NCBI GenBank assembly: GCA_018110785.1
Contig: JAGBHD010000060.1
Location: forward strand, 11,238-75,237
Length of the DNA stretch: 64,000 nt
Direction of reading: 5' to 3'
From: Oscillospiraceae bacterium
GTDB taxonomy: Bacteria > Bacillota > Clostridia > Oscillospirales > JAGBHD01
A model generated the notes under the pieces. That model had not been told where the DNA came from and did no database searches. It worked only from the letters and a program-made list of their open reading frames with translations. A program made the position numbers and the translations under genes. Shown here one piece after another: positions 3,529 through 53,450 of the stretch (the first letter of the stretch is position 1; each line of letters begins with the position of its first letter).

Positions 3529-3972
3529 TTACATGTAGTTCTTTTTTATAGTCTCTAACACTTTCTCATCTGACAAGTCTTTATGCCACCAATGATTGCA
3601 TATTCCTTTTTCATCTTCTTTTCTTCTATTGTCCGAAATTGCCAATGTACATAATAACACTTTAAATCCATTTGCAAGTTCATTTTCCGGCAAACGGCAA
3701 ATTTTATATCCAAACTTTTGAAACGGCTCTTTTTGATTTAACAACATAATTGTAGGTGTTGCGCGACCTTTTTTTATATTATTTGCCGCAACAGAAATAT
3801 CATTTGTTGTTGCTCCCGATTGTATAACCATATTTAACAAAGCAAATAAAATACTGCGCCTATCTTCAACATTATAGTTTAAGAACCATGCTTCCATTTC
3901 CTCTAATGTAAATATATTTTGCACAAACTGATTCAATTTTATTTCTTCATTTATATTTAATATCCTATTCAC
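3529..3972 (-). CDS. Hypothetical soluble protein, probably DUF5958-like
   Basis: 147 aa with a GTG start and AAGGGG SD. The LNQFVQ ... LPENE ... DNRRKE ... CNHWWHKDL pattern matches my recollection of the DUF5958 family. This is memory-based and not searched. Confidence 0.5.
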   Translation of the reverse strand: MNRILNINEEIKLNQFVQNIFTLEEMEAWFLNYNVEDRRSILFALLNMVIQSGATTNDISVAANNIKKGRATPTIMLLNQKEPFQKFGYKICRLPENELANGFKVLLCTLAISDNRRKEDEKGICNHWWHKDLSDEKVLETIKKNYM

Positions 3973-39869: not shown

Positions 39870-39897
39870 AAAAAGCCCCGAAAATCGGGGCTTTTTA
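39870..39897. terminator. Bidirectional intrinsic terminator
   Basis: Stem AGCCCCG / CGGGGCT with an AAAAT loop, flanked by A and T runs, shared by convergent genes. Confidence 0.8.
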
Positions 39898-40806
39898 TTT
39901 TGCTTTGTCGCCTTGGGAAAGAGAAATTCTTTCAAACTCGCGGTTTATATAGTTTAAAACTTTTTTCTTATCGGCTGTCCACAAAGGGGCGATAAGGTCT
40001 TTTTTCGCGCCGTCGCCCGTTATGCGGTGAATAACAACGCTTTTAGGTATTCGGCGGATACACTCCCCTAAAACGCGGGTATATTCCTCCAAGGAGAAAA
40101 GAGGAACATTTCCGCTTAAATAGTCCTTTTCGAGGTCGGTCCCTTTTACTACATAGAGCATATGAAATTTAACCCCGTTTATTCCAAGGGAGCCTACGTA
40201 TTCCGCCGTTTTAAATATCTCTTCTTCGCTCTCATTTGGCAGCCCTATAATTAAATGAACTACCGTTTCTATTCCCGCTTCTTTAAGGTCTTTTACAGCC
40301 TTTTCGAATACGGGTAAAGAATAACCTCTTCTTATATAATCAGCGGTTTTTTCGTGCATCGTTTGAAGCCCTAATTCAACCGAAACGGGCTTTATTAAGG
40401 AAAGCTCTTTTAATAAGGCTATAACCTCTGAAGATAAAAGGTCGGGCCGAGTCGCTATGGAGAGCATTACGATTTCGGGATTATTTATAGCTTCGGTAAA
40501 AATCTTTCTAAGGTAATTTACGGGCGCATAGGTGTTCGAAAACGATTGAAAATATGCAATAAATTTTCCACTTTTTGCTTTATTTTTTACTAATTTTTTA
40601 GCAGTTTTTATCTGCTCGGAAATGCTCATTTCCGAGTCGGCGCAAAATTCACCCGAGCCGCTCTCTGAGCAAAATATACAGCCTCTATCTCCAATAGTTC
40701 CATCGCGATTGGGGCAGGTCATACCGCCCGAAAGCGAAAGCTTATAAACCTTTTCTCCAAAGCGCTCCTTTAAATGCTCGGAGAGCGAATAATAATGCTT
40801 TTCCAT
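39895..40806 (-). CDS. TIGR01212-family radical SAM protein (YhcC-like)
   Basis: 303 aa with CPNRDGTIGDRGCIFC near the N-terminus. Its start is coupled to the DAHP synthase stop (TAATG). Confidence 0.8.
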   Translation of the reverse strand: MEKHYYSLSEHLKERFGEKVYKLSLSGGMTCPNRDGTIGDRGCIFCSESGSGEFCADSEMSISEQIKTAKKLVKNKAKSGKFIAYFQSFSNTYAPVNYLRKIFTEAINNPEIVMLSIATRPDLLSSEVIALLKELSLIKPVSVELGLQTMHEKTADYIRRGYSLPVFEKAVKDLKEAGIETVVHLIIGLPNESEEEIFKTAEYVGSLGINGVKFHMLYVVKGTDLEKDYLSGNVPLFSLEEYTRVLGECIRRIPKSVVIHRITGDGAKKDLIAPLWTADKKKVLNYINREFERISLSQGDKAK

Positions 40807-41837
40807 TATTTTACGCTGTCAGCAATTTTGAAAATAAGGTTTTCGGTTTTCTCCCAGCCAAGGCAGGGGTCGGTTATCGACTGACCGTAAAGATGGTTTT
40901 CTGCTTTACCCGCGCCGTCTTCAATATAGCTTTCTATCATAAGGCCTTTAACAAAGGGGCGAAGAGAGCTATTCTGATTGCGGCTGTTCATTATATCCTC
41001 AGCAATTCTTATCTGCTCTAAATAGCGTTTGCCCGAGTTTGCATGGTTAGTATCAACGATTACGGCAGGATTTACAAGTCCGCTTTTATTATAGCGCTCT
41101 AAAAGGTCAACCAAGTTTTCATAATGATAGTTTGAAACATTATGGCCTGCGCTATCGGTAAAGCCGCGCAAAATTGCATGGGCTAAGGGGTTACCCTCGC
41201 TTTCAACCTCCCAGCCGCGGTAAATAAACATATGCTTATGCTGAGCGGCGGTAACGGAATTCATTAAAACACTGATATCTCCGCCCGTAGGGTTTTTAAG
41301 CCCTACCGGTATTTTAAGTCCGCTTGCGGTTAATCTATGCTGTTGATTTTCTGCCGAACGCGCTCCTACTGCAACATAGGATAAAAGGTCGGACAGATAA
41401 CGGTGGTTTTCGGTATAGAGCATTTCATCAGCAGAAGAAAGTCCGAAATCTCTGAGGGCTGTCATATGGAGCTCTCTTATTGCAACAATACCCTTTAACA
41501 TATCGGGGTTTTCATTGGGATCGGGCTGATGAAGCATTCCCTTATAGCCATCGCCTGTTGTTCTCGGCTTATTGGTATAGATTCTGGGAATAATTATAAT
41601 CTTATCCGAAACCTTTTCCTCTACCCTTTTAAGTCTGCCTATGTAATCGAGAACAGATTCTTTGTTATCGGCAGAGCAAGGACCTATAACGAGGATAAAT
41701 TTATCGGATTTTCCCTCAAAAACATCTCTTATTTCCTTATCTCTTAATGATTTTACCCTTTCCATTTCGGCTGTTAAGGGATATGCTTCCTTTATATCCT
41801 TAGGAATAGGAAGCTTTCTAATAAAATTCATATTCAT
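40806..41837 (-). CDS. aroF: 3-deoxy-7-phosphoheptulonate (DAHP) synthase, class I
   Basis: 343 aa with LVIGPCSADN and a KPRT-like motif of type I-alpha DAHP synthases. Confidence 0.85.
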   Translation of the reverse strand: MNMNFIRKLPIPKDIKEAYPLTAEMERVKSLRDKEIRDVFEGKSDKFILVIGPCSADNKESVLDYIGRLKRVEEKVSDKIIIIPRIYTNKPRTTGDGYKGMLHQPDPNENPDMLKGIVAIRELHMTALRDFGLSSADEMLYTENHRYLSDLLSYVAVGARSAENQQHRLTASGLKIPVGLKNPTGGDISVLMNSVTAAQHKHMFIYRGWEVESEGNPLAHAILRGFTDSAGHNVSNYHYENLVDLLERYNKSGLVNPAVIVDTNHANSGKRYLEQIRIAEDIMNSRNQNSSLRPFVKGLMIESYIEDGAGKAENHLYGQSITDPCLGWEKTENLIFKIADSVK

Positions 41838-41852
41838 AATATATTATCTCCT

Positions 41853-42713
41853 TTATATCTTATTATCGAACAGTTCCCGACGCTTTGTCGAAAGCCGCAT
41901 CATTTCTTTAATTGTTTCAGCATCTTCTTCTTTGATGGCTTTATATATTTTATCAAAGCTTTCCTTAAAAGACTCCATTTCTTCTATTAAAGCCTCTCGG
42001 TTTAATAGGAACAATTCGCTCCACATATTCTCATTTATTCTTGCTATTCGGGTTAAATCTCTGAAAGAGTCTCCCGTATATTTTACTAAATCTTCATTTT
42101 CATTTGCGCACATTAAAGATACCGCGATACAATGAGTTAGCTGAGAAAGAAAGGCTATCATCTTATCGTGTTCCTCAACTGATAGAGTGGATATTCTTTT
42201 AAAGCCGAGGGTTTCGCCTAAATTGCGGCAGATTGTTATAGCATATTTGGTATTTTTCTCGGTAGGAACTATTATATAGTTTGCATTTTCGAAAATACTG
42301 CTATCGCTGTTTTCAACCCCGCTTTTCTCTTTACCTGCCATAGGGTGAGCCGCGATAAACTCAGCTCTTTCGCCGATTATATCCTGCACCCTTTTAACTA
42401 TAGAGCTTTTAACGCCCGTTACATCGGTTAAGACAGCCCCTTCCTTTATTTTATCCTTATGCTTTTCTATCCAATCTATAAAGATATGAGGATAAAGCGC
42501 GAAAACAATTATATCTGCCTTTCCTACAATATCTTCGTTTACCTCGGTTGTTCCCTCGTCGATAATTTCGCTTCTTAAAGCAAAATCAATATCTTCCTTT
42601 TCCTTTGTTATAGCAGAAACCCTATAACCCTTATTTTTAAGCGCCATAGCATAGCTTCCGCCGATAAGTCCGAGTCCGACTATCAATATTCTTTTATTTT
42701 TATTAAGCTCCAT
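41853..42713 (-). CDS. tyrA: Prephenate dehydrogenase
   Basis: 286 aa with the NAD motif IVGLGLIGGSYA and the AAHPMAG motif. Confidence 0.85.
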   Translation of the reverse strand: MELNKNKRILIVGLGLIGGSYAMALKNKGYRVSAITKEKEDIDFALRSEIIDEGTTEVNEDIVGKADIIVFALYPHIFIDWIEKHKDKIKEGAVLTDVTGVKSSIVKRVQDIIGERAEFIAAHPMAGKEKSGVENSDSSIFENANYIIVPTEKNTKYAITICRNLGETLGFKRISTLSVEEHDKMIAFLSQLTHCIAVSLMCANENEDLVKYTGDSFRDLTRIARINENMWSELFLLNREALIEEMESFKESFDKIYKAIKEEDAETIKEMMRLSTKRRELFDNKI

Positions 42714-42716
42714 CTT

Positions 42717-43922
42717 TTACAGTCCCTTTTCTTCGATGCTGACTGAAAGCATCTTCAATTTTTCAAAGAAATCGGGATAGCTTTTCGCTATCGCTTCAGC
42801 GCCGCGGATTTCTCCCCCCGTTATGGTAGAAAGGGCGGTCATCGCCATAACTATTCTATGGTCGTTATGTCCGTAAAGCGGCTGAGTTGGCGCTTTAAGA
42901 GTTCCTTTTTCTACTATTACGCTGTTTTCTTCTTCTATTAAATTTATACCGAATTTTTTAAGCTCTTCCCGCATAGTTGCTATGCGGTCGCTCTCTTTTA
43001 TTTTAAGCCTTTTTGTTCCGACGAATTTCCCGCCGCCGAAAACTGCCGCCGCCGCGAATAAAACGGGGGCTAAATCGGGGCAATCGGAAAGGTCTAAAGG
43101 CTCATTTTTGTTTTCCTTAAGTTTTCTTAAATATTCCTTGCAAACGCTATCTCCCTGAGAGCTGTTTTCCTTTAAGCCCTTAACATCTACCTCTCCGCCT
43201 ATTTCATTTAAAAGGAAATATACTGCCGCATTGGAATAGTCGCCCTCAACTACAAACTCGCGGTTTTGGAATTTTCCGCTTTTTACAGAAAAAACACCAT
43301 CGCTATAATCGGTTTCAATTCCGAACTCTCTTAATATCTCTCTTGTTAAATCTATATAGGGGCTGCTTTCAAGGGCAGTTGTTAGCTCTATTTCGCTGTT
43401 TCCTTTCGTATTCGGAAGGGAAAACAAAAGTCCGCTTATAAACTGGCTCGAAACATCGCCGCGAAGACGATAATTCCCGCTTTTTATAGGTCCTTTTAAA
43501 ACTATATTGTTTTCGTTTTGTTTAAAGGTTACGGGCATTTTTTCAAAAAGCTCTTTAAATACATCTTGCGGACGCTTTAAAAGCCTTCCCTCGCCCGTAA
43601 GGGTTATTTTTTTATCAAAAAGCATAGCTATTGGGATTATAAAACGAAGGGTACTTCCGCTTTCAGAGCAGTTAATTTCGGCGCTCCTTATATCATTTTT
43701 TAAAAGTCCGCCTATAATAACCTCTTCGCCCTTTTCTTCTATTTCAGCGCCCAAGGCTCTAAGCGCCCTTAGGGTTGCCTTAATATCCTCTGAATAGGCT
43801 ATGTTTTTTATAACGCTTTTTTCTGATAACGCGCCGCAGATTAAGGCTCTATGCGCCGCAGATTTTGAGGGCGGAGCCGAAATAATGCCTTTCGCCTTTG
43901 AGGGTTTTATAACAACTGTCAT
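42717..43922 (-). CDS. aroA: 3-phosphoshikimate 1-carboxyvinyltransferase (EPSP synthase)
   Basis: 401 aa with PPSKSAAHRALI and the LKIKESDR motif. Confidence 0.92.
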   Translation of the reverse strand: MTVVIKPSKAKGIISAPPSKSAAHRALICGALSEKSVIKNIAYSEDIKATLRALRALGAEIEEKGEEVIIGGLLKNDIRSAEINCSESGSTLRFIIPIAMLFDKKITLTGEGRLLKRPQDVFKELFEKMPVTFKQNENNIVLKGPIKSGNYRLRGDVSSQFISGLLFSLPNTKGNSEIELTTALESSPYIDLTREILREFGIETDYSDGVFSVKSGKFQNREFVVEGDYSNAAVYFLLNEIGGEVDVKGLKENSSQGDSVCKEYLRKLKENKNEPLDLSDCPDLAPVLFAAAAVFGGGKFVGTKRLKIKESDRIATMREELKKFGINLIEEENSVIVEKGTLKAPTQPLYGHNDHRIVMAMTALSTITGGEIRGAEAIAKSYPDFFEKLKMLSVSIEEKGL

Positions 43923-44353
43923 ACATTCTCCTCACCGCACAAAAAGTCGATAGCTTCGGTATATCCCTTTGTTCCGTGGCCCGTTATGGTTTTAGCGCAG
44001 TAATCTCTTATATAGCTTACCTGTCTGAAATCTTCCCTCTCGGAAACCTCGGAGATATGCACCTCTACGGTTTTTATATTTACAGCCTTTAAGGCATCTA
44101 AGATAGCAACGCTTGTATGGGTATAGGCTCCCGGATTTATAACTATACCGTCTGCCTTTTTTAGAAGGCTTTGGATATAATCGACCAAGGCTCCCTCATG
44201 GTTTGACTGAAAGGTAAGTATTTTTATGCCTTTAGCTTTTCCGTATTTTTTAATTTCACGGCATAAATCCTTATAGCCTTTATTTCCGTATATTTCGGGC
44301 TCTCTTACCCCTAAAAGATTGAGATTAGGTCCGTTTATAACTGCTATTGTCAT
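43919..44353 (-). CDS. aroQ: Type II 3-dehydroquinate dehydratase
   Basis: 144 aa with INGPNLNLLGVREPEIYG and QSNHEG. Confidence 0.92.
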   Translation of the reverse strand: MTIAVINGPNLNLLGVREPEIYGNKGYKDLCREIKKYGKAKGIKILTFQSNHEGALVDYIQSLLKKADGIVINPGAYTHTSVAILDALKAVNIKTVEVHISEVSEREDFRQVSYIRDYCAKTITGHGTKGYTEAIDFLCGEENV

Positions 44354-45117
44354 AGCGATTTTTCCTCTTTACTTTTTAAAATTATATTATATATCCGCTC
44401 GGTTTCATCTTGGGATATTTTTTTATCTAAAAACTTTTCTGCCGCCGCAACTGCCTGAACTACAAGCATATAAAGCCCACCCTCGGCGGGGAGACCTCTT
44501 TTTAAAGCCTTTTTAACAGATACTGTTTTCAAAGGATTATAAACCGCATCTACCATTCCTTTAAGGTCTTTTAAAAGGTTTATATCCATGCTTTCGGATA
44601 AAACATTGGGATACATCCCGCAGGGGGTTGTATTTATAAAAAAGTCTGCCCCCATATTTTCTGCCTGCTTATATGTAATACAGCCCTCTTTTTCGCTTCT
44701 CGAAAGGCGGTAAACCGAAGCCGCGCCAAGACTTTTCGCTACGGCGGCGGCGGTTTTAGAGGTGCCTCCGCTTCCTGCAATTAAAACCCTTTTGCCATTT
44801 AATGAAACACCCGTTCTTTTTATAAGGGCTTTCATTCCGACAAAGTCGGTATTATAGCCGCAAAGCTTGCCATCGCGGTTACAGATAGTATTAACAGCAC
44901 CGATTTCCAAGGCTTTATCGTCTATCTCATCGAGATATTTCATAACAACCTGCTTATAAGGAATTGTTACATTTATTCCCTTGAAATCTCTTTTCTTTAA
45001 AAAAGGCTCTACTTCTTCGGGCTTTAGCTCTTTCAATTCATAATTATAGCCCAAAAGGGGGTGGATTTCGGCAGAATAGCTATGTCCTAGCTTTTCGCCT
45101 ATTAAGCCATATTCCAT
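44350..45117 (-). CDS. aroE: Shikimate dehydrogenase
   Basis: 255 aa with GHSYS, NVTIPYK, NTDFVG and GSGGTSK. Confidence 0.85.
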   Translation of the reverse strand: MEYGLIGEKLGHSYSAEIHPLLGYNYELKELKPEEVEPFLKKRDFKGINVTIPYKQVVMKYLDEIDDKALEIGAVNTICNRDGKLCGYNTDFVGMKALIKRTGVSLNGKRVLIAGSGGTSKTAAAVAKSLGAASVYRLSRSEKEGCITYKQAENMGADFFINTTPCGMYPNVLSESMDINLLKDLKGMVDAVYNPLKTVSVKKALKRGLPAEGGLYMLVVQAVAAAEKFLDKKISQDETERIYNIILKSKEEKSL

Positions 45118-46199
45118 TAGATTTCTCCCGCTTTCCGCCTTAAAATAAGGTCGTAAACTGCGATTGCAGATGCCGCATCTATAACCGCTCTTGCTCTATG
45201 AACTATGCAAGGATCGTGTCTGCCGACAAAAGCGTGGGTTATGTCTTTCCCGCTTTTAATGTCAACTGTTTTTTGCTCTTTTCCGATAGTAGGCGTAGGC
45301 TTTAGAGCACAGCGGAAGATTACGGGCATACCGTTTGTTATTCCGCCTAAAATGCCGCCCATATGGTTAGTTTCGGTTGAAACTGTACCATCTTTATAGG
45401 TAAAAGCATCGTTTACCTCGCTGCCCTTTTTATTTGCTAATTCGAAGCCATCTCCGAATTCAACACCTTTAACGGCGGGAACGGAAAACAGGATATGAGA
45501 AAGACAGCTTTCTACTGTATCAAACCAAGGCTCTCCGAGTCCTACGGGAAGACCTGTTATCGCGGTTTCCAAAACTCCGCCGACACTATCGCTTTCCTCT
45601 CTTGCTTTGAGTATAGCCTTTGTCATTTCCTCGCCCATTTTCTCATCTAAAACGGGGAAAAGCATACTATTTAACAAATCTATATCCTTATTATATTCGG
45701 AGAATTCGCGGTCGCATATTCCATAGATGCTTTTAATATGGGTACCTATTTTAATGCCCTTTTCTTCGAGCGCTCCCGATATAACGGCGCCTGCCGCAAC
45801 TAAAGCCGCGGTTATTCTTCCGCTGAAATGTCCGCCGCCGCGATAGTCTTCATTTCCGCCGTATTTAATAAATGCGGTATAATCGGCATGAGATGGGCGG
45901 GGGATATATCTTGCCGCGCTGTAATCCTTTGAACGGGTATCCTTATTGGGAATTAAAATCGTTATCGGGGAGCCTGTCGCTTTGCCTTCGAAAACACCGC
46001 TTACTATTCTGAATTCGTCGGCTTCGCTTCGCGGAGTTGAAATATTTCCGCTCGGACGGCGAAGAGAAAGCTTCTCCTTTATTCTTTCCTCGCTTATTTT
46101 TGTTCCCGCTACAAGGCCATCTATAACGATGCCGATTTCAGGACCGTGGCTTTCACCGAAAAGGGTTACCTTTAAGGCATTTCCGTAAGAATTGCTCAT
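45117..46199 (-). CDS. aroC: Chorismate synthase
   Basis: 360 aa with FGESHG and RPSHADY signatures. Confidence 0.95.
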   Translation of the reverse strand: MSNSYGNALKVTLFGESHGPEIGIVIDGLVAGTKISEERIKEKLSLRRPSGNISTPRSEADEFRIVSGVFEGKATGSPITILIPNKDTRSKDYSAARYIPRPSHADYTAFIKYGGNEDYRGGGHFSGRITAALVAAGAVISGALEEKGIKIGTHIKSIYGICDREFSEYNKDIDLLNSMLFPVLDEKMGEEMTKAILKAREESDSVGGVLETAITGLPVGLGEPWFDTVESCLSHILFSVPAVKGVEFGDGFELANKKGSEVNDAFTYKDGTVSTETNHMGGILGGITNGMPVIFRCALKPTPTIGKEQKTVDIKSGKDITHAFVGRHDPCIVHRARAVIDAASAIAVYDLILRRKAGEI

Positions 46200-47206
46200 T
46201 TTGCCGCCTCCTTGATTTTAGAAATAATTTCCTTTGCTGTCATTTCTTTCATAGCCCATTTGCCGATTTTAGGCACGGTTACTATGCTTATTTTCTTGCC
46301 CGATTTTTTCTTATCATGCTCTATTGCTTGCCTTAAAGCTTCGGGAGATTCGCTAATTTCTGTCGGCAAGGATAGCTTTTTCAAAGCAGAGATAAGCCTA
46401 TCTTTTAAATCATCGCTTATGAAGACCGTCATTCCTAAAGCTACGCATTCTCCATGGAAAAGCTCGGGGTTTGCCATTTCAACAGCATGACCTACGGTAT
46501 GTCCGAAATTTAAGATCTTGCGAAGGCCTTTTTCCTTTTCATCCTTTTCTACTACCCTTTTTTTAACCGAAAGGGAGCGGAAAATAACCTCTTCTATCTG
46601 CTGAAAAGGGTTTTTATTTTCAAAAATATCGAAAAGCTTTTTATCGCTTGTAAGCCCCATTTTTAAAGCCTCTGCCATTCCGTTTGATATCTGACGGGGG
46701 TCTAAGGTTTTTAATGTATCAGGGTCGATTACAACCGCATTCGGAGCCTTAAAGGCGCCAATGATATTTTTATATCCTCCGAAGTCAACGGCGGTTTTTC
46801 CGCCGATAGAGGAATCTACCTGAGATAAAAGGGTTGTCGGGATATTATAGAAATCTATTCCGCGCATATACGAGGCGGCGGCAAAGCCCGCGATATCTCC
46901 TACTACCCCTCCGCCTACGGCTACTACCGCATCAGCGCGGGAAAAGCTGTTTTCGGTTAATGCCGATAAAATTTGCTCGAAGGTTTTCATCGTTTTGGAT
47001 TTTTCCCCTTGGGGAAACTCTACTATATATCCCTCTGAAGCCGCCTTTAAAACCGCTTCGGAATACTCTTTCGGAACGCCGCTGTCGGTAACGACCATTA
47101 CTCTGCGGTTTAAATTAAGAAGCCGTCCGACATCTGAAAGAGCGCCTCTATAGAGATATATGTTATATGCGCCGTCATGAGTTTTAACGGGTATTATTCT
47201 TTTCAT
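46196..47206 (-). CDS. aroB: 3-dehydroquinate synthase
   Basis: 336 aa with GGGVVGDIAGFAA and NFGHTVGHA. Confidence 0.9.
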   Translation of the reverse strand: MKRIIPVKTHDGAYNIYLYRGALSDVGRLLNLNRRVMVVTDSGVPKEYSEAVLKAASEGYIVEFPQGEKSKTMKTFEQILSALTENSFSRADAVVAVGGGVVGDIAGFAAASYMRGIDFYNIPTTLLSQVDSSIGGKTAVDFGGYKNIIGAFKAPNAVVIDPDTLKTLDPRQISNGMAEALKMGLTSDKKLFDIFENKNPFQQIEEVIFRSLSVKKRVVEKDEKEKGLRKILNFGHTVGHAVEMANPELFHGECVALGMTVFISDDLKDRLISALKKLSLPTEISESPEALRQAIEHDKKKSGKKISIVTVPKIGKWAMKEMTAKEIISKIKEAAK

Positions 47207-48291
47207 AAAGAAACTTCCTTTTCAAAACTTCCTAAAACCTTAAGCTCGTTGCAGAATTTTTTAAGGTCCTTTAACATTTCCTCGCCCTCGGGAGAATGGA
47301 TAGCGCCTTCTCCTTCGGCATAGAAATAATAGCTCCAGACAAGCTCCTTTGTAGGTCGGCTTTTTAAGGCTCTGAGGTTAAATCCGTGCTCACCTATAAC
47401 CGATACTGCTTTACCTAAAGCTCCCGCTTCGTTTTTAACGGTAAAGGTCATAACAAACTGCTTATCTGCTTTAGATTTTGATTTTTCAGTTCTCGCGAAA
47501 ACTGCAAAACGGGTAGTATTTGTATTGCTTCCGTTTATATGAGCCTCTAATTTTTTAAGCCCATACTTTTCGGCAGCTTCATCGCTTCCTATAGCGGCAG
47601 TATCGTGCCGTCCTAAAGCGGCAACCTCTTTAGCTGCAACAGCGGTATTAACTGCTTCGACCGTTTCAAACCCGTGCTTTCTAATATATTCGGCGCATTG
47701 GCCGAGCGCCTGAGGATGGCTTATTACCCTTTTAACCTCGTCCATCGTTGTTCCTTTAACTGCAAGGAGATTCTGAACAACTCCGACATCATAAATTCCG
47801 TTGATATGTAAAGAGCCGAAAAAGGCTAAATCCATAACCAAACCGACATCGCCGTTTGAACTGTTTTCAACAGGCAATACGGCGCAATCGCATTCGCCTT
47901 TTTCTACCGCTTCATAGGCTGCGCGGAAATCGGAATAGCCCTTGAAAGAGGCTGTTGGGAAAATCTTTTTAGAAACGATATGGGCAAAGGCGCCCTCAAC
48001 ACCGCTGTAGGCTACCGTCATTCCGTTTAAAATGCGGTTTTGCATAGCCTTGGAAAGCTCCATATTGCTTTTTAGAAAGTTTACATAATAGGGGCGGTAA
48101 TCATCGTTTTTAACCCTTTTCGAATTCTTTTCGATTATGAGGTTTTCTCTGCCTGCGTCGAAAACGGGAAGACCGCACTCCTTTTTATATGCCGCAACCT
48201 CTTTGACCGCGTCCATCCTTTTCTCGAAAAGCTCCGCCATTTCGGAATCTATTTCGTCTATCGCTTTTCTTGCCTTTTCTAAACTGTTCAT
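47203..48291 (-). CDS. pheA: Bifunctional chorismate mutase / prephenate dehydratase
   Basis: 362 aa with an N-terminal CM_2 helix bundle, a PDT domain (TRF motif) and a C-terminal ACT domain. Confidence 0.88.
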   Translation of the reverse strand: MNSLEKARKAIDEIDSEMAELFEKRMDAVKEVAAYKKECGLPVFDAGRENLIIEKNSKRVKNDDYRPYYVNFLKSNMELSKAMQNRILNGMTVAYSGVEGAFAHIVSKKIFPTASFKGYSDFRAAYEAVEKGECDCAVLPVENSSNGDVGLVMDLAFFGSLHINGIYDVGVVQNLLAVKGTTMDEVKRVISHPQALGQCAEYIRKHGFETVEAVNTAVAAKEVAALGRHDTAAIGSDEAAEKYGLKKLEAHINGSNTNTTRFAVFARTEKSKSKADKQFVMTFTVKNEAGALGKAVSVIGEHGFNLRALKSRPTKELVWSYYFYAEGEGAIHSPEGEEMLKDLKKFCNELKVLGSFEKEVSL

Positions 48292-48293
48292 TA

Positions 48294-49457
48294 TTATTCT
48301 CCCTTAAAGGCCTTTTCAAAATGAGGAATTGACCTTTTAATCATATCTTTATCAACGCAATATGAAATGCGTATATACCCTGAAACTCCGAAATCATCGC
48401 TCGGAACTAATAAAAGCTCTTCCTTTTTAGCCTTTTCGCAAAAGGCTTTTGCATCGCCGCCTAGCGCTTCTACGAAGAGATAAAAGGCGCCGTCGGGGCT
48501 TATGCATTTATATCCGATTTTTTGAAGCGCATTATATAAAATATCTCTGTTTTCTCTGTAGGCATTTATATCCGAGGTAAGACCTAAATTTTTAGCTACC
48601 GCCTTTTGCAAAATGCTCGGCGCGCAAACATAGCCTAATGCTCTGCCCGCACCGCAAACTGCGGCAAAAAGGTCGGGCGCGCCATCACAATCAGGAGATA
48701 CCGCAATATATCCTATTCTCTCGCCCGGTATGGAGAGAGATTTGCTGAATGAATAGCAAACAACTGTATTTTTATAATATTTCGGAATATAAGGAACCGA
48801 ATCATTTCCGTAATAAAGCTCTCTATATGGCTCGTCGGCAATAATAAAGGTTTTTGTTCCTTTTAAGATATCTGAAAGCTTTTTTATGTCCTTTTCGGGG
48901 TAAACCGCCCCTGTAGGGTTATTTGGCGAATTTATGATTACCGCTTTTGTTTTTTCGTTTAAAGCCGCCTTTAACCCATCAAAATCTATCTGCATTGTAT
49001 CTTTATGGCATTTAACCTCTCTTACCTTAAAGCCCGCTTTTTCTGAGAAAACCTTATATTCGGGAAAATAGGGAGCTAAGAGGATTATTTCATCGCCCTC
49101 AGTGTATAAGGCGTTTAAGGTTATTGTTAAAGCCGCCGCCGCGCCACAAGTCATATAGATTAAATTTTTAGGGATAGCGAAGCTATGAGTTTTTTCGATA
49201 TATTCAGAAACCATCTCTCTTACCCCGTCATCTCCCGCGGCAGAGGTATATCCGTGAAGCGAAACCGAGCTTTCATTTTTCAAAAGCTCTATCATTGTTT
49301 CATCGAATTTTTTCGGAGCGGGAATGCTTGGATTTCCCAAGCTGAAATCGAAAACATTCTGAGCTCCTATTTCAGCTTTTCTTTTTCTGCCGTATTCAAA
49401 AATTTCTCTGATAACCGAGCTTTTCTTGCCAAGTTCCATCATTCTTTCAGAAAACAT
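48294..49457 (-). CDS. Class I aminotransferase (probable aromatic/aspartate aminotransferase), first gene of the aro operon
   Basis: 387 aa with NNPTG and SFSKSLSIPGERIGY (PLP Lys). Confidence 0.85.
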   Translation of the reverse strand: MFSERMMELGKKSSVIREIFEYGRKRKAEIGAQNVFDFSLGNPSIPAPKKFDETMIELLKNESSVSLHGYTSAAGDDGVREMVSEYIEKTHSFAIPKNLIYMTCGAAAALTITLNALYTEGDEIILLAPYFPEYKVFSEKAGFKVREVKCHKDTMQIDFDGLKAALNEKTKAVIINSPNNPTGAVYPEKDIKKLSDILKGTKTFIIADEPYRELYYGNDSVPYIPKYYKNTVVCYSFSKSLSIPGERIGYIAVSPDCDGAPDLFAAVCGAGRALGYVCAPSILQKAVAKNLGLTSDINAYRENRDILYNALQKIGYKCISPDGAFYLFVEALGGDAKAFCEKAKKEELLLVPSDDFGVSGYIRISYCVDKDMIKRSIPHFEKAFKGE

Positions 49458-49474
49458 ATTCTTTCCTTTCTATT

Positions 49475-49510
49475 AAAAAAACCCGCTATCAGTTTTAAAC
49501 CGAAAGCGAG
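49475..49510 (-). terminator. Leader (attenuator) terminator upstream of the aro operon
   Basis: Stem CUCGCUUUCGG / CUGAUAGCGGG (11 bp, with 1 mismatch and 2 G-U pairs) plus U7. It ends 17 nt before the aminotransferase ATG. Confidence 0.65.
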
Positions 49511-49540
49511 CTTCTGAATACTTTTTTCAAAACACGCGAA

Positions 49541-49624
49541 TTAGACCGCGGCTGTTTTACAGGTAAACAGACAGTTCGCTTTTTCGGTATAGTAATAAAA
49601 TCGATACGCGGTATTTAAAAGCAT
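49541..49624 (-). CDS. Candidate 27-aa leader peptide MLLNTAYRFYYYTEKANCLFTCKTAAV (Tyr/Phe-rich)
   Basis: ATG at 49624 with AGAAAGGTGAG 5 nt upstream. Codons 7-12 read Tyr-Arg-Phe-Tyr-Tyr-Tyr. It lies between the promoter and the leader terminator. Confidence 0.45.
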   Translation of the reverse strand: MLLNTAYRFYYYTEKANCLFTCKTAAV

Positions 49625-49658
49625 TCTGCTCACCTTTCTTTTAAAATAATACAAAATA

Positions 49659-49687
49659 ATTTTATATTATAATTATCTCTTTGTCAA
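49659..49687 (-). promoter_or_regulatory. Putative aro-operon promoter (TTGACA-17-TAAAAT)
   Basis: The -35 is at 49687..49682 and the -10 at 49664..49659. Confidence 0.5.
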
Positions 49688-49702
49688 GGGAAAATCGCTT
49701 TA

Positions 49703-50530
49703 TTACGGTAAAAAACCACCAATTTTATAGCTCTGCCTGTATTTTAGGGGGGTAATTCCCATAATTTTTTTGAAAACGGCAGAAAAATAGTTGCTATCAT
49801 TAAATCCGCAGAGAGAGCTTATCTCGGTTACAGATTTATCGGTTTCGGTTAAAAGATGGCTCGCCTTTGCTATTCTCATTTGGTTTAAATATTCATTAAA
49901 GCCAAAGCCTGTAGATATTTTAAATATGGTTGAGAAATATTCTTTGGAAAAGGCAAAATGCTTCGCCATAAAGGAAAGGGTTAAATCCTCTTCCAAGTGC
50001 TTCTTTATATAGTCGATAGCATCCTGCATTAAAAGGTCGTTTTTGGAAAGGGGCGTTTTTTTGAAATCGCTTAAGGGCATTCGCGAAAGCTCGCATAAAA
50101 TTTTAATAAGATTTGCCTGATTGGAAAGGGGGCTTAATTTATCCTCTCTTACGCGCTCTCTATATAAATCATCGAATAAAGCCCTTATTCTCGCTCCCGC
50201 TTCGCCCTCGGGTCGGTAGAAATATTTTTCGAAGCAGGAAATAAGCTCATTTGGAATATCCTCGCCTTTTAGCGAAATAAGATATCGCTCGGTTGGAATT
50301 TCGGTATTGCTTCCGGGCGTTCTTATCGATTTATGGGTTGTCATTTTAGGAATAAGAACCATATCTCCCGCCTTTAAATCCCATATTTCATCTTCAATAA
50401 TATAGCGCACTGCGCCGTTTATGAGATAATATATTTCATAATTATAATGATAATGAGCCTCGCTTATATTCCGCTTATAGGTTCGTCTATAGGAAAAGAA
50501 GCTATCCTCTGTATGTACGCTGTTTTTCAT
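49703..50530 (-). CDS. AraC-family transcriptional regulator (cupin plus HTH)
   Basis: 275 aa from the ATG at 50530 (MKNSVHTED...). The C-terminal AraC HTH reads SNYFSAVFKKIMGITPLKYR. Divergent from the hexuronate operon. The ORF-track N-terminal extension overlaps the divergent GH4 gene start (50650) and its promoter region. Confidence 0.85.
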   Translation of the reverse strand: MKNSVHTEDSFFSYRRTYKRNISEAHYHYNYEIYYLINGAVRYIIEDEIWDLKAGDMVLIPKMTTHKSIRTPGSNTEIPTERYLISLKGEDIPNELISCFEKYFYRPEGEAGARIRALFDDLYRERVREDKLSPLSNQANLIKILCELSRMPLSDFKKTPLSKNDLLMQDAIDYIKKHLEEDLTLSFMAKHFAFSKEYFSTIFKISTGFGFNEYLNQMRIAKASHLLTETDKSVTEISSLCGFNDSNYFSAVFKKIMGITPLKYRQSYKIGGFLP

Positions 50531-50649
50531 ATACAACCTCAAAATCTTAATATTTTCGTGTTTTTTATTATAATACCCCAAAATTATAGTGGTTGTCAAT
50601 GAAAAATTGTGATAATATAGGCTTGAAAATACCATTTTAGGAGGATAAT

Positions 50650-52035
50650 ATGAAAAACGATAGCGCAAAATTAAAACTCGCCTATATAGGCGGCGGCTCC
50701 AGAGGCTGGGCTTGGAACTTAATGAAGGACTTAGCATTAACCGACAATCTCTCGGGAACTGTTGACCTTTATGATATTGATTACTCGGCGGCTGTTGATA
50801 ACGAGCTTATAGGAAACAGCATAAATAAAAACTATCCCAATGCGGGCAAATGGACCTACAGAGCTGTTAAAGAAATCGGAGAGGCTTTAACGGGCGCTGA
50901 TTTCGTTATAATATCAATTCTCCCCGCAACCTTTGAGGAGATGCGAGTTGATGTTCACGCTCCCGAGAAATACGGCATCTATCAGGCTGTAGGCGATACT
51001 ACAGGCCCCGGAGGAGTTATCCGTTCGCTCAGAACTATTCCTATGTATGAATACATAGCGAATGCTATAAAGAAATATTCTCCCAATGCTTGGGTTATAA
51101 ACTATACTAACCCTATGGCAGTTTGCACCAATACTCTTTATAAGGTATTCCCCGAAATAAAGGCTTTCGGCTGCTGCCACGAGGTTTTCGGAACTCAGAA
51201 GATTTTAGCCGCAGCGCTTGAAGAATTTGCAGGAATTAAAGATGTAGAGAGAGATGAAATTAAGGTTAATGTTATCGGTATTAACCATTTCACTTGGCTA
51301 ACTTCCGCTCATTACAAAAACATCGATTTGATGCCTTTATACAAAAAATACGCTGAAAAGTATATTTATGTTGAAACCGAAGCCGTTAAAGATGACAACT
51401 GGATGAATAATGTTTTCAGAAATTGTAACTGGGTTAAGTATCATCTTTTCTTAAAATATGGTATAATAGCAGCAGCAGGAGATCGCCATCTCTCTGAATT
51501 CTGCCCTTCGGCTTGGTACAGCAAGACTCCCGAGCTTGTAAATTCTTGGAAATTCGGCCTTACCGATGTTGATTGGAGAATTAAGGATTTAGGCGATCGC
51601 CTCGAGAAAAGCAAACTCTTAAAAGACGGTACAGAGAAATTAGACCTTGTTCATTCGGGCGAAGAGGGTGTTCGCCAGATGCAGGCGATTTCAGGTCTTG
51701 GCGATTTAGTTACCAACGTTAACCTCCCCAACCGCGGACAGATTTCAAATCTTCCTTTGGGAACTGTTGTTGAAACTAACGCTATATTCACCTCTGATAC
51801 CGTTCAGCCCGTTGTTTCAGGCGCTATTCCCGATTCCATTTTAGGACTCGTTTCTTCCGCTGCTGCAGTTCAGGATATGACTGTTGAAGCAGGTCTCCAG
51901 AGAGATTTGGATTTAGCATTTAAGGCATTCTCTGCCGACAGCAGAATTCAAGAGCTTTCCTTTAAGGATGCGAAAAGCTTATTCGATGAGATGATATGCG
52001 GCACTAAAGAGTATTTAAAAGAATATTTCAAATAA
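50650..52035 (+). CDS. Glycoside hydrolase family 4 (LplD-like, probable alpha-galacturonidase)
   Basis: 461 aa with the NAD motif KLAYIGGGSRGWAWNL and the GH4 CHEV motif. The context is uronate genes. Confidence 0.8.
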   Translation: MKNDSAKLKLAYIGGGSRGWAWNLMKDLALTDNLSGTVDLYDIDYSAAVDNELIGNSINKNYPNAGKWTYRAVKEIGEALTGADFVIISILPATFEEMRVDVHAPEKYGIYQAVGDTTGPGGVIRSLRTIPMYEYIANAIKKYSPNAWVINYTNPMAVCTNTLYKVFPEIKAFGCCHEVFGTQKILAAALEEFAGIKDVERDEIKVNVIGINHFTWLTSAHYKNIDLMPLYKKYAEKYIYVETEAVKDDNWMNNVFRNCNWVKYHLFLKYGIIAAAGDRHLSEFCPSAWYSKTPELVNSWKFGLTDVDWRIKDLGDRLEKSKLLKDGTEKLDLVHSGEEGVRQMQAISGLGDLVTNVNLPNRGQISNLPLGTVVETNAIFTSDTVQPVVSGAIPDSILGLVSSAAAVQDMTVEAGLQRDLDLAFKAFSADSRIQELSFKDAKSLFDEMICGTKEYLKEYFK

Positions 52036-52049
52036 GAGGTGTTTTTAAA

Positions 52050-53450
52050 TTGAAGTTTATTAAAAAAGACTTTATGCTTCAAAATTCTACGGCGAAAAAA
52101 CTTTATCACGATTATGCGGCTGATATGCCAATTATCGACTATCATTGCCATATTAATCCAAAAGAAATTTTTGAAGACAGAAAATTCGAAAATATAACTC
52201 AGGTTTGGCTCGGCGGCGACCATTATAAATGGCGCGTTATCAGAAGCTGCGGTGTTCCGGAAGAAGAGATAACAGGCTCTGCTTCCGACCGCGTTAAGTT
52301 TCAGCATTTTGCGGAGGCTATGCCGCGTCTTATCGGAAACCCGATGTATCATTGGACTCATTTAGAGCTTAAAAATTATTTCGGATATGACGGTGTTTTA
52401 AACGGCGAGACAGCTGAAGAGGTATGGAACCTTTGCAACGAGAAGCTTAAAGAGGATAGCTTCTCTGTTAGAAACCTTATTATGCGCTCGAATGTTGAAA
52501 TGATTGGAACTACCGATGATCCTATTGATTCCTTAGAGTGGCACGAAAAATTAAAATGGGATTCGACCTTTACCGTTAAGGTTCTCCCCTCTTTCAGACC
52601 CGACAAGGCTGTTAACATTGATAAAGAGGGCTTTACAGATTATATTTCGGCGCTCGGAAAAGCAGCAGGAATTGAAATCAGCTCTGTAGAAGATGTTAAA
52701 AAGGCTCTTTCTTTACGACTTGACCATTTCTGCTCTCTCGGTTGCCGCGCTTCTGACCACGGGCTTGACAAGGTAGTTTTTGCAGAAGCTAGTGAAAAGG
52801 AAATAGAGGCTATATTCAAAAAGGCTTTAAATGGAAAAGAGATTTCCGAAAAAGAGGCTGACTCTTACAAAACAGCTGTTTTATTACATTTAGGAAAAGA
52901 ATATGCTAAGAGAGATATCGTAATGCAGCTGCATTACGGCGCAAGGAGAAACACAAATACTCCTATGTTCAAGAAATTAGGTCCCGATACGGGATTCGAC
53001 TGCATTTCGGGTGTTTCCTGCGGCGAAGAGATTATTCTCTTTATGAACGCTTTGATAAGCGAAAACGCGCTTCCTAAAACTATTCTTTATTCCTTAAACC
53101 CTGCTGATAACGAAATGCTCGATACCATTTTAGGCTGCTTCCAGGGAACTGAGATTGCGGGCAAAATTCAGCACGGCTCTGCTTGGTGGTTTAATGATAA
53201 CAAAATCGGAATGGAAGATCAGATAAAATCCCTTGCTAACCTTTCGGTGCTTGGAAACTTTATCGGTATGCTTACAGATTCTCGCAGCTTCCTTTCCTAT
53301 ACAAGACATGAATATTTCCGCCGAATTTTATGCAACGTTATAGGCGGTTGGATAGAAGACGGCGAGTATCCCGATGATATTGAAACTGCTGGCGCTTTAG
53401 TTCGCGACATTTCCTATAACAATGCAGTTAAATATTTTTCGATAGATTAA
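52050..53450 (+). CDS. uxaC: Glucuronate isomerase
   Basis: 466 aa with a TTG start and AAGAGGTG SD. Has PIIDYHCHI and WWFND motifs. Confidence 0.93.
   Translation: MKFIKKDFMLQNSTAKKLYHDYAADMPIIDYHCHINPKEIFEDRKFENITQVWLGGDHYKWRVIRSCGVPEEEITGSASDRVKFQHFAEAMPRLIGNPMYHWTHLELKNYFGYDGVLNGETAEEVWNLCNEKLKEDSFSVRNLIMRSNVEMIGTTDDPIDSLEWHEKLKWDSTFTVKVLPSFRPDKAVNIDKEGFTDYISALGKAAGIEISSVEDVKKALSLRLDHFCSLGCRASDHGLDKVVFAEASEKEIEAIFKKALNGKEISEKEADSYKTAVLLHLGKEYAKRDIVMQLHYGARRNTNTPMFKKLGPDTGFDCISGVSCGEEIILFMNALISENALPKTILYSLNPADNEMLDTILGCFQGTEIAGKIQHGSAWWFNDNKIGMEDQIKSLANLSVLGNFIGMLTDSRSFLSYTRHEYFRRILCNVIGGWIEDGEYPDDIETAGALVRDISYNNAVKYFSID

Follow-up and report, generated by a model that had tools for sequence, protein, structure and literature searches.

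A stretch of 64,000 nucleotides (nt) of DNA from an Oscillospiraceae bacterium (contig JAGBHD010000060.1 of assembly GCA_018110785.1; the whole stretch is called the window below) carries, immediately upstream of an operon for the biosynthesis of aromatic amino acids, what is very probably a ribosome-mediated leader-peptide transcription attenuator, which would couple the phenylalanine, tyrosine and shikimate operon to the supply of charged tRNA-Phe and tRNA-Tyr. An earlier note on this DNA had proposed a leader peptide sensing Tyr and Phe at this place, and that reading is supported by the comparison of 37 homologous leaders, in which the small open reading frame (ORF), its run of Tyr and Phe codons and the alternative helices are all conserved, with compensatory changes in the helices. 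The model supposes that the leader ORF is translated, that the ribosome stalls within it and that the stalling responds to the amino acid supply. All coordinates of the attenuator and of the operon refer to the minus strand of the window.

The leader is preceded by a sigma-70-type promoter, TTGACA-17-TAAAAT (49659..49687), which has 11 of 12 matches to the consensus and from which transcription would start near 49652, about 28 nt 5' of the leader AUG. A Shine-Dalgarno (SD) sequence, AAGGUG (49631..49636), is located 6 nt before the AUG of an ORF of 27 codons and a stop (49541..49624; ATG at 49624, TAA at 49543-49541), which encodes the peptide MLLNTAYRFYYYTEKANCLFTCKTAAV with four Tyr and two Phe residues. 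Codons 7-12 (49589..49606), as read from the sequence, are UAU CGA UUU UAU UAC UAU (Tyr-Arg-Phe-Tyr-Tyr-Tyr), and this aromatic codon run is the presumed site of ribosome stalling. An intrinsic terminator (49475..49515) ends 17 nt before the ATG of the aminotransferase gene (49457). Its core stem (49510-49482) begins 30 nt 3' of the leader stop, has 11 pairs with one U.U mismatch and is followed by a U7 tract (49481-49475). The terminator is seen in the minimum free energy (MFE) fold; a simple terminator scan missed it and listed only P2, a hairpin described below. The whole leader of the window folds at -47.6 kcal/mol, only moderately more stable than its shuffles (z = -2.2). The ORF, the codon run and the terminator are present as the earlier note had described them, as is the good SD, the spacer of which had been given as 5 nt; it is 6 nt here and depends on how the SD is delimited.

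The operon that follows (39895..49457) consists of ten genes. According to Pfam scans, these encode a class I/II aminotransferase, pheA (chorismate mutase/prephenate dehydratase), aroB, aroC, aroE, aroQ, aroA, tyrA (prephenate dehydrogenase), DAHP synthase and a radical SAM protein, i.e. the common aromatic pathway together with the Phe and Tyr branches. No trp genes were found among the operon proteins by these scans, in agreement with the gene content noted earlier (pheA and tyrA, without trp), and no shikimate kinase domain was seen among the proteins scanned. The aminotransferase is 100% identical to an annotated protein of an Oscillospiraceae metagenome-assembled genome. The same gene order follows every homologous leader for which enough downstream sequence is available, with the leader about 150 nt upstream of the operon; at two loci (L052 and L083), the downstream sequence reaches aroA, tyrA and DAHP synthase, matching the order in the window. 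Two leaders (L056 and L083) directly precede pheA, with no aminotransferase gene in between. The gene upstream of the leader varies among the loci, being unrelated or divergent in some of them, and it is accordingly the aro operon, rather than this neighbour, to which the leader and terminator belong.

Conservation of the leader peptide

The comparison set comprised 37 distinct leaders, 13 of which were reached through the downstream aminotransferase protein alone and about 24 through a DNA pattern. The aminotransferases of the 13 protein-found leaders are 60-78% identical to that of the window. The closest relatives, L042, L044 and L045 (78%, 77% and 73% identity), have the leader peptides MLFANNRFYYYTEKANCLFTDKTAAV, MFISYRFYYYTVKANCLFTETAAV and MLFNNRFYYYTEKANCLFTDKTAAV, respectively. 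More distant are L094 (65%; MFAKYGQYFYYYFFTKTDLLCADKAGL), L097 (64%; VFVNYFRFYYFNIADCLCTELA), L093 (63%; MSKYYTFRFYFSNKDCLCIV), L095 (62%; VFKYVMYYFYYYFTNGLSANLVKIYA), L002 (61%; MIRNFSYRFFYFINADCLCAE), L003 (61%; MIRNFIYRFFYFINADCLCAE), L001 and L035 (60-61%; both with MIRKNYFRFYSFINCGLSMC) and L032 (60%; MSVYAMYRFYYFNTDCLYTKA), the loci L001-L035 being derived from Acutalibacteraceae and Clostridia metagenome-assembled genomes. The DNA pattern, with which metagenomes were scanned, required UCGAUUUU, part of the run and the core of an RNA segment named R2 below; it returned 46 loci, of which about 15 were discarded as chance or unrelated matches. Six metagenome loci, several of them from the human gut (L047, L050, L065, L078, L084 and L090), matched the pattern by chance and share one highly conserved stretch (in one frame: ..NRCFIRFFYFLKSLGLSVKKMMQS) without a start codon, which is an unrelated element.

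In all 37 distinct leaders, a start codon (AUG or GUG), an in-frame run of Phe and Tyr codons and an in-frame stop codon are present, and the 13 protein-found leaders all obey the SD/start/run/stop pattern. The SD is found in 36 of the 37, at 5-8 nt from the start codon, while a promoter of the form TTGACA-16/17-TAnAAT is located 22-52 nt before the leader start in all 36 leaders that could be evaluated. These leaders encode 31 distinct peptides of 20-27 amino acids, each with 5-10 Phe and Tyr residues and none with Trp. The codons of the run are limited to UAU, UAC, UUU and UUC, and the variation within it is mostly from Tyr to Phe. The homologous runs read [YF]RF[YF][YS][FY] or, lacking Arg, YFYYYFF (L094) and YYFYYYF (L095); in the latter two, the Arg codon is swapped for aromatic codons, leaving seven aromatic codons in a row. 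Insertions and deletions 5' of the run are multiples of three, so that the window and its closest relatives have leaders of 27, 26, 25 and 24 codons, and the stop codon in frame is always situated 3' of R2, also where the frame relative to R2 differs. These features support the small ORF behaving as a coding sequence.

The Arg codon inside the run (49601-49603 in the window), where present, is always CGA, and the motif [YF]-R-F-[YF] with this codon occurs in 29 of the 31 distinct peptides. Of the two leaders placed directly before pheA, the one at L056 (10872-11069) has an SD-proximal AUG (MDNSMYKNRFYYY..). L083 (817-1014) has ACG in its place, so that the peptide must begin at the following AUG of the same frame, at 15 nt from the SD (MYINRFYYY..); because the SD-proximal codon is ACG, the start site of this leader is uncertain.

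The co-occurrence of these features was assessed with a composite signature, consisting of an SD, a start codon, an ORF of 12-35 codons with at least five aromatic codons in six, and a terminator within 150 nt. It was found at 25 sites in 0.73 Mb (the window and all the loci collected, both strands), every one of them a leader of the aro operon, which is far beyond chance.

Upstream of distant aminotransferase homologues from Clostridiales and Anaerovibrio (about 50% identity; L012, at about 3870-3950, and L013-L016), the Tyr/Phe leader is absent. The 5' regions of L012-L016 carry other short elements composed of a hairpin and a U run, e.g. CCUCCGGAGACUGCUUUUCUGGAGGUUUUUAUUUU in L012, which suggests that these homologues are under different control.

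Alternative helices and the proposed mechanism

Four segments of the leader RNA may form alternative helices. R1 (AAGGUGAGCAGAAUGCUUUUA; 49616..49636), the 5' strand of the anti-antiterminator as delimited by duplex prediction and covariation, spans the SD, the spacer, the AUG and codons 2-3. The switch segment R2 (AAAAAGCGAACUGUCUGUUUACCUG; 49560..49584) can pair either with R1 or with R3 (AGUAUUCAGAAGCUCGCUUUC; 49502..49522), which overlaps the 5' arm of the terminator by 9 nt, and R4 is the 3' arm of the terminator, followed by the U tract. The hairpin P2 (GUAAAACAGCCGCGG..CGCGUGUUUUG; 49528..49559), which is seen in the MFE fold and was terminator-like in the scan, lies between R2 and R3. 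The ribosome-free MFE architecture common to the leaders tested comprises an R1:R2 hairpin with the aromatic codons at its apex, P2 and the terminator R3:R4. The antiterminator R2:R3 is a long imperfect helix (49584-49560 with 49522-49502) that encloses P2.

In the window, the R1:R2 duplex is predicted at -20.4 kcal/mol (z = -4.8 against shuffled R2) and R2:R3 at -17.3 kcal/mol (z = -4.3). Duplexes predicted for each of the 37 leaders gave similar means, -20.1 kcal/mol for R1:R2 (z = -3.7 against shuffled R2) and -18.8 kcal/mol for R2:R3 (z = -3.9), with R3 overlapping the terminator 5' arm by 4-9 nt; the terminator is present in all 37, at a mean of -23.1 kcal/mol. A hairpin is also present at the position of P2 in the homologues, its sequence being variable. 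The P2 of the window holds the leader stop codon in its loop and has the 3' tail UGUUUUGAAAAAA (UGUUUUG), a U-rich tail that is not kept in the other subfamilies; one may speculate that P2 is an RNA polymerase pause site from which the ribosome releases the polymerase.

The core of R2, GRAYUGYCUR, is kept as nucleotides across reading frames, and the segment ends in ..GRAYUGYCUGU..CC. Most leaders read the GGAYUGUCU form of the core in frame 2, while L001, L035, L086 and L095 read it in frame 0. Since the nucleotides are kept while the frame differs, R2 is an RNA element and not a peptide motif.

Base pairs were counted on alignment A2 (33 sequences, MAFFT), and the per-sequence duplex predictions were mapped to its columns. 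For the antiterminator, 80.6% of the cells are paired, compared with 22-39% when the partner is slid, and 33 cells are changed on both sides, a number reached by none of 500 shuffles. R1:R2 and the terminator together have 77.8% of the cells paired, compared with 36-47% when slid, and 113 both-side-changed cells in 17 pairs, again reached by none of 500 shuffles; compensatory changes occur in 11 of 18 terminator pairs and 6 of 18 R1:R2 pairs. The GG of the SD pairs with the CC 3' of the R2 core in standard pairs in 33 of 33 and 31 of 33 leaders (columns 28:98 and 27:99). The pairing of the leader AUG with UGU involves U.G and G.U wobbles, seen in 32 and 31 of the 33 leaders, respectively; that these wobbles are kept and do not drift to Watson-Crick pairs fits the AUG being constrained both as a start codon and as a part of the helix. 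In L094, which has a divergent R2 core (GGACCUUCUG), R1 (ACGGAA) and R3 (AAGGAGGGUCC) are both changed to match. The consensus fold from RNAalifold on A2 was limited to six pairs at the terminator base, as A2 does not align the structures of the variable P2 region and of the terminator loops.

The pairings drawn by hand in the earlier note fared differently from its overall topology. The antiterminator had been proposed as two blocks, of which the GCGA:UCGC core is conserved and ACCGAAA:UUUCGGU, predicted in the window, is not retained in L042 and L045; the terminator arm of these two reads UAUCAGU and is compensated only in the terminator's own 3' arm. The dominant 1:2 helix joins the SD, the spacer, the AUG and the first codons (49636-49616) to ..AAAAAGCGAACUGUCUGUUUACC (49584-49560), ending ..CUGUCUGUUUACC; the pairing UCGAUUUU:AAAAGCGA proposed for 1:2 could at best extend this helix inwards to a minor degree. 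The segments containing CGCG, taken as a source of further alternative pairings, simply form the middle hairpin P2.

The attenuator would probably work as follows, and the same rule would apply across the subfamilies. When no ribosome is loaded, R1:R2 would form and bury the SD and the AUG, R3:R4 would form as well, and transcription would stop at about 49475. Because R1 is the leader's own ribosome-binding site, untranslated transcripts would be locked off and not translatable later. When charged tRNA is ample, the ribosome would reach the stop codon, on or just past R2, blocking R2:R3, and R3:R4 would terminate transcription; the leader stop codon is located 5-24 nt past the R2 core across the leaders, which fits a ribosome at the stop blocking R2:R3. 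When charged tRNA-Phe or tRNA-Tyr is scarce, the ribosome would stall in the run, separate R1 from R2 and leave R2 free to pair with the emerging R3, so that the base of the terminator would be occupied and RNA polymerase would read into the operon.

Constrained folds of the window leader are consistent with this scheme. The footprint of the ribosome, of assumed size, was masked. When the first aromatic codon of the FYYY run is the stall site and the 3' arm of the terminator is still to be transcribed, the fold is the antiterminator with P2 enclosed (-27.7 kcal/mol), and it contains the contacts of ACCG..GCGA with UCGC..CGGU from the earlier note. A ribosome placed on the stop codon leaves the terminator as the sole structure (-19.1 kcal/mol). 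A stall at the last codon of the run gives a shorter antiterminator (-18.8 kcal/mol), and therefore stalling early in the run should have the greatest effect. The masked folds of L052 agree: the antiterminator forms upon an early stall, and nothing but the terminator with the ribosome at the stop.

A further suggestion, which is offered tentatively and is clearly less probable than attenuation as such, is that the element could represent a separate design within leader-peptide attenuation, suited to a phylum whose RNA polymerase usually runs ahead of the ribosomes. According to this suggestion, only a ribosome loaded before R2 is transcribed (within about 50 nt) would take part in the decision, and an uncoupled transcript would lock itself into a terminated, untranslatable form, while two more features might help, P2 and its U-rich tail by causing the polymerase to pause and the rare, nearly invariant CGA by delaying the ribosome. 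If so, the leader would serve in Clostridia as a natural reporter of how the polymerase and the lead ribosome are coupled, and also as a single sensor of two amino acids for the entire aro supraoperon.

Points against attenuation and alternative explanations

Several observations weigh against the attenuator as interpreted above. Neither the codon run nor the length of the ORF is conspicuous by itself: runs of at least five aromatic codons in six occur 19 times in the six frames of the window (40% GC), compared with 8.7 times in shuffles, so that the codon run alone is not evidence beyond chance, and an ORF of 20-27 codons is of about the length expected by chance. In the pattern-found leaders, 24 of the 37, conservation of UCGAUUUU, part of the run and the R2 core is circular. 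The leaders are related by descent, which inflates the shuffle-based measures of covariation. The antiterminator has only four pairs with changes on both sides, which is not exceptional (reached by 104 of 500 shuffles), and the exchange of cognate for non-cognate partners changed the duplexes from -19.9 to -16.0 and from -18.6 to -15.4 kcal/mol, a modest advantage and weak evidence, R2 being nearly invariant. Because the MFE fold sequesters the SD and AUG, ribosomes have to initiate ahead of the transcription of R2. At the phylum level, Bacillota are classed as having 'runaway' transcription (PMC13323073), which makes the tight coupling of ribosome and polymerase needed here less obviously available, and the organisms carrying the leader are known only as metagenome-assembled genomes. 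Finally, among the 13 leaders reached through the protein alone, 11 have the octamer UCGAUUUU without any change, which points to an additional constraint at the level of nucleotides or codon choice, beyond a simple starvation model. Possible reasons for the invariance of CGA are that it is a slowly decoded codon, that it pairs with the CG at the 5' edge of R2, or that it has an effect through the nascent peptide.

This invariance of UCGAUUUU, which is greater than the identity of the codons needs, together with the burial of the SD and AUG, would also fit an untranslated RNA switch, in which a trans-acting factor binds the U/A-rich apical region around UAUCGAUUUUAUUACU and the ORF is incidental. 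Small-molecule ligands, tRNAs and RNA-binding proteins similar to TRAP or PyrR are candidates for this role. A weak resemblance to the PyrR binding site (RF00515; 22.3 bits, E = 0.67) falls far short of the gathering cutoff (54 bits) and is due to nothing more specific than a hairpin with a terminator, and no Rfam family, T-box included, was found in the window or in 11 homologous loci. However, the apical region varies codon-wise, through U[AU][UC] only and in the frame of the conserved AUG or GUG, the indels are multiples of three, and L094 and L095 have aromatic codons where CGA would stand. The nearly constant distance from SD to start (5-8 nt in 36 of 37) and the in-frame stop, which always follows R2, are also those of a translated sequence, and an untranslated switch seems improbable.

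Another explanation might be that the peptide itself is an arrest or sensor peptide, with Y-R-F-Y-Y-F and the rare CGA stalling the ribosome via the exit tunnel and with a free amino acid perhaps modulating the stalling, as in TnaC, so that the response would not be one of simple charged-tRNA starvation. The presence of [YF]-R-F-[YF] with CGA in nearly all of the distinct peptides would be in line with this, as would the Arg residue, which has no obvious role in the sensing of Phe or Tyr. However, L094 and L095 do without Arg and have a longer aromatic run instead, conservation of the peptide does not extend beyond the run, and its C-terminal part is read in different frames in different lineages. 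Stalling by free Phe or Tyr would, judging from the logic of the pathway, also have the wrong sign, turning the operon on when its product is abundant. Nascent-chain arrest is considered even less likely than the untranslated switch.

The least probable explanation, that of a chance ORF in AT-rich DNA beside the ordinary terminator of the upstream AraC-family gene, with no conditional regulation, would account for the frequency of aromatic runs in the window and for the modest z-score of the whole-leader fold, but is already contradicted by the comparative data, since the AraC-family gene and the leader are separated by a promoter that all 36 leaders evaluated have kept, the leader and terminator stay with the aro operon where the upstream gene is unrelated or divergent, and the ORF, the run and the three helices are kept where the adjacent aminotransferase is only about 60% identical.

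Genomic context and relation to known attenuators

The AraC-family gene upstream of the leader ends at 49703, and the promoter of the leader is situated between the two. The region of the window from 49703 to 53450 encodes this AraC-family regulator, a divergent family 4 glycoside hydrolase and a glucuronate isomerase (UxaC). This synteny is kept in L044 and L045 (73-77% aminotransferase identity) and not in the more distant carriers of the leader. At the other end of the operon, the radical SAM gene (39895-40806, minus strand; domains Radical_SAM and Radical_SAM_C) is probably co-transcribed with the aro genes because its start overlaps the last base of the DAHP synthase gene.

Leader-peptide attenuation is textbook knowledge for Proteobacteria, while amino acid operons of Firmicutes (Bacillota) are usually controlled by T-boxes, riboswitches and RNA-binding proteins. 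Reports of leader peptides in this phylum are few and concern his, ilv-leu and a candidate aroF upstream ORF in Acholeplasma. The Phe/Tyr leader described here is conserved across many uncultured Oscillospirales of the gut and rumen, in which one promoter would govern the complete shikimate, Phe and Tyr pathway and the mixed run would sense two amino acids. The mechanism requires the first ribosome to be within about 100 nt of RNA polymerase. A conserved ribosome-dependent attenuator is mildly unexpected in Bacillota, given their assignment to the runaway class, and the conservation of the leader in such a phylum bears on how general the uncoupling is (PMC13323073). For annotation, the leader family, which has no Rfam model, is a candidate addition to RNA databases, and 'leader peptide' is the appropriate annotation for the small ORF, which should be neither called a hypothetical protein nor left as empty intergenic sequence. 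A prediction for the regulation of aromatic amino acid synthesis in abundant gut commensals also follows from the leader.

The element has those features of the class of ribosome-mediated attenuators that can be assessed by computation: an ORF led by an SD after a promoter, cognate codons, a terminator, an antiterminator exclusive with it, an anti-antiterminator, and a suitable geometry of stall and stop. It would work like the classic leader-peptide attenuators and stands outside every curated sequence family. Neither the Phe_leader family (RF01859) nor the Trp, His, Leu, Thr and Leu-Phe leader families matched at E <= 10 in 49380-49760 (Rfam 15), and no relevant match at the gathering level was obtained in the window or in the 11 homologous loci. 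The T-box (RF00230) likewise had no match at E <= 10 in the leader or at gathering thresholds in the window and the 11 loci, so that the absence of a T-box motif, remarked on before from the letters of the window, is confirmed. A Tyr/Phe leader peptide of an aro operon of Oscillospirales or Clostridia was not found in the literature, the coverage of which was incomplete, so that a prior description is possible.

T-box leaders have in common with the present element the position in the 5' leader of an amino acid operon, the terminator/antiterminator switch and the response to tRNA charging. Here, in contrast, neither the T-box sequence nor Stem I is present, and the sensor would be the translating ribosome.

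Closer parallels exist within the phylum. Attenuators with his leader peptides have been predicted or shown in the Bacillus cereus group, Peptostreptococcaceae and Erysipelotrichales (PMC2965389, PMC9413887), and the ilv-leu operon of Staphylococcus aureus has a leucine-rich attenuator peptide (PMC5794164). These leaders share the phylum and the principle, an ORF with cognate codons and an antiterminator/terminator switch where a T-box is more usual, but they concern different amino acids and operons and are likened here by description, not by sequence. No aromatic amino acid leader from Clostridia is described in these three papers. Closest in its target is uORFC-13-1 (PMC8632094), located upstream of aroF and found only in Acholeplasma and environmental sequences, with a U run coding for at least one Phe. 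Like the present leader, it is a predicted upstream ORF with Phe codons right before an intrinsic terminator and a shikimate-pathway gene, in a lineage related to Gram-positive bacteria. It precedes aroF alone, whereas here mixed Tyr/Phe runs of 4-7 codons are found and the operon starts with the aminotransferase and pheA, the two elements being set apart by the published text description only.

In its layout, the element most resembles the enterobacterial pheA leader and the trp, his, leu, thr and ilv leaders of Proteobacteria. The ORF led by an SD and containing codons for the end product is common to them, as are the 1:2 / 2:3 / 3:4 arrangement of anti-antiterminator, antiterminator and terminator, the placement of the stop codon so as to block 2:3, and termination by default if the leader is untranslated. 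The pheA leader of Escherichia coli contains regulatory codons for Phe only, and tyrA of this bacterium is not known to have a leader. Here, in contrast to the enterobacterial pheA and other Proteobacteria leaders, Tyr and Phe codons are mixed and the whole common pathway with both branches would be controlled. The variant features include some of note, namely the sensing of Tyr together with Phe, the sequestration of the SD by the anti-antiterminator and the near-invariant CGA in the run. R1 is the SD/AUG region here, so that the anti-antiterminator sequesters the leader's ribosome-binding site, the regulatory codons are mainly apical, between R1 and R2, and not within R1 as in the Proteobacteria leaders, an extra hairpin, P2, lies inside the antiterminator, and the host belongs to Bacillota.

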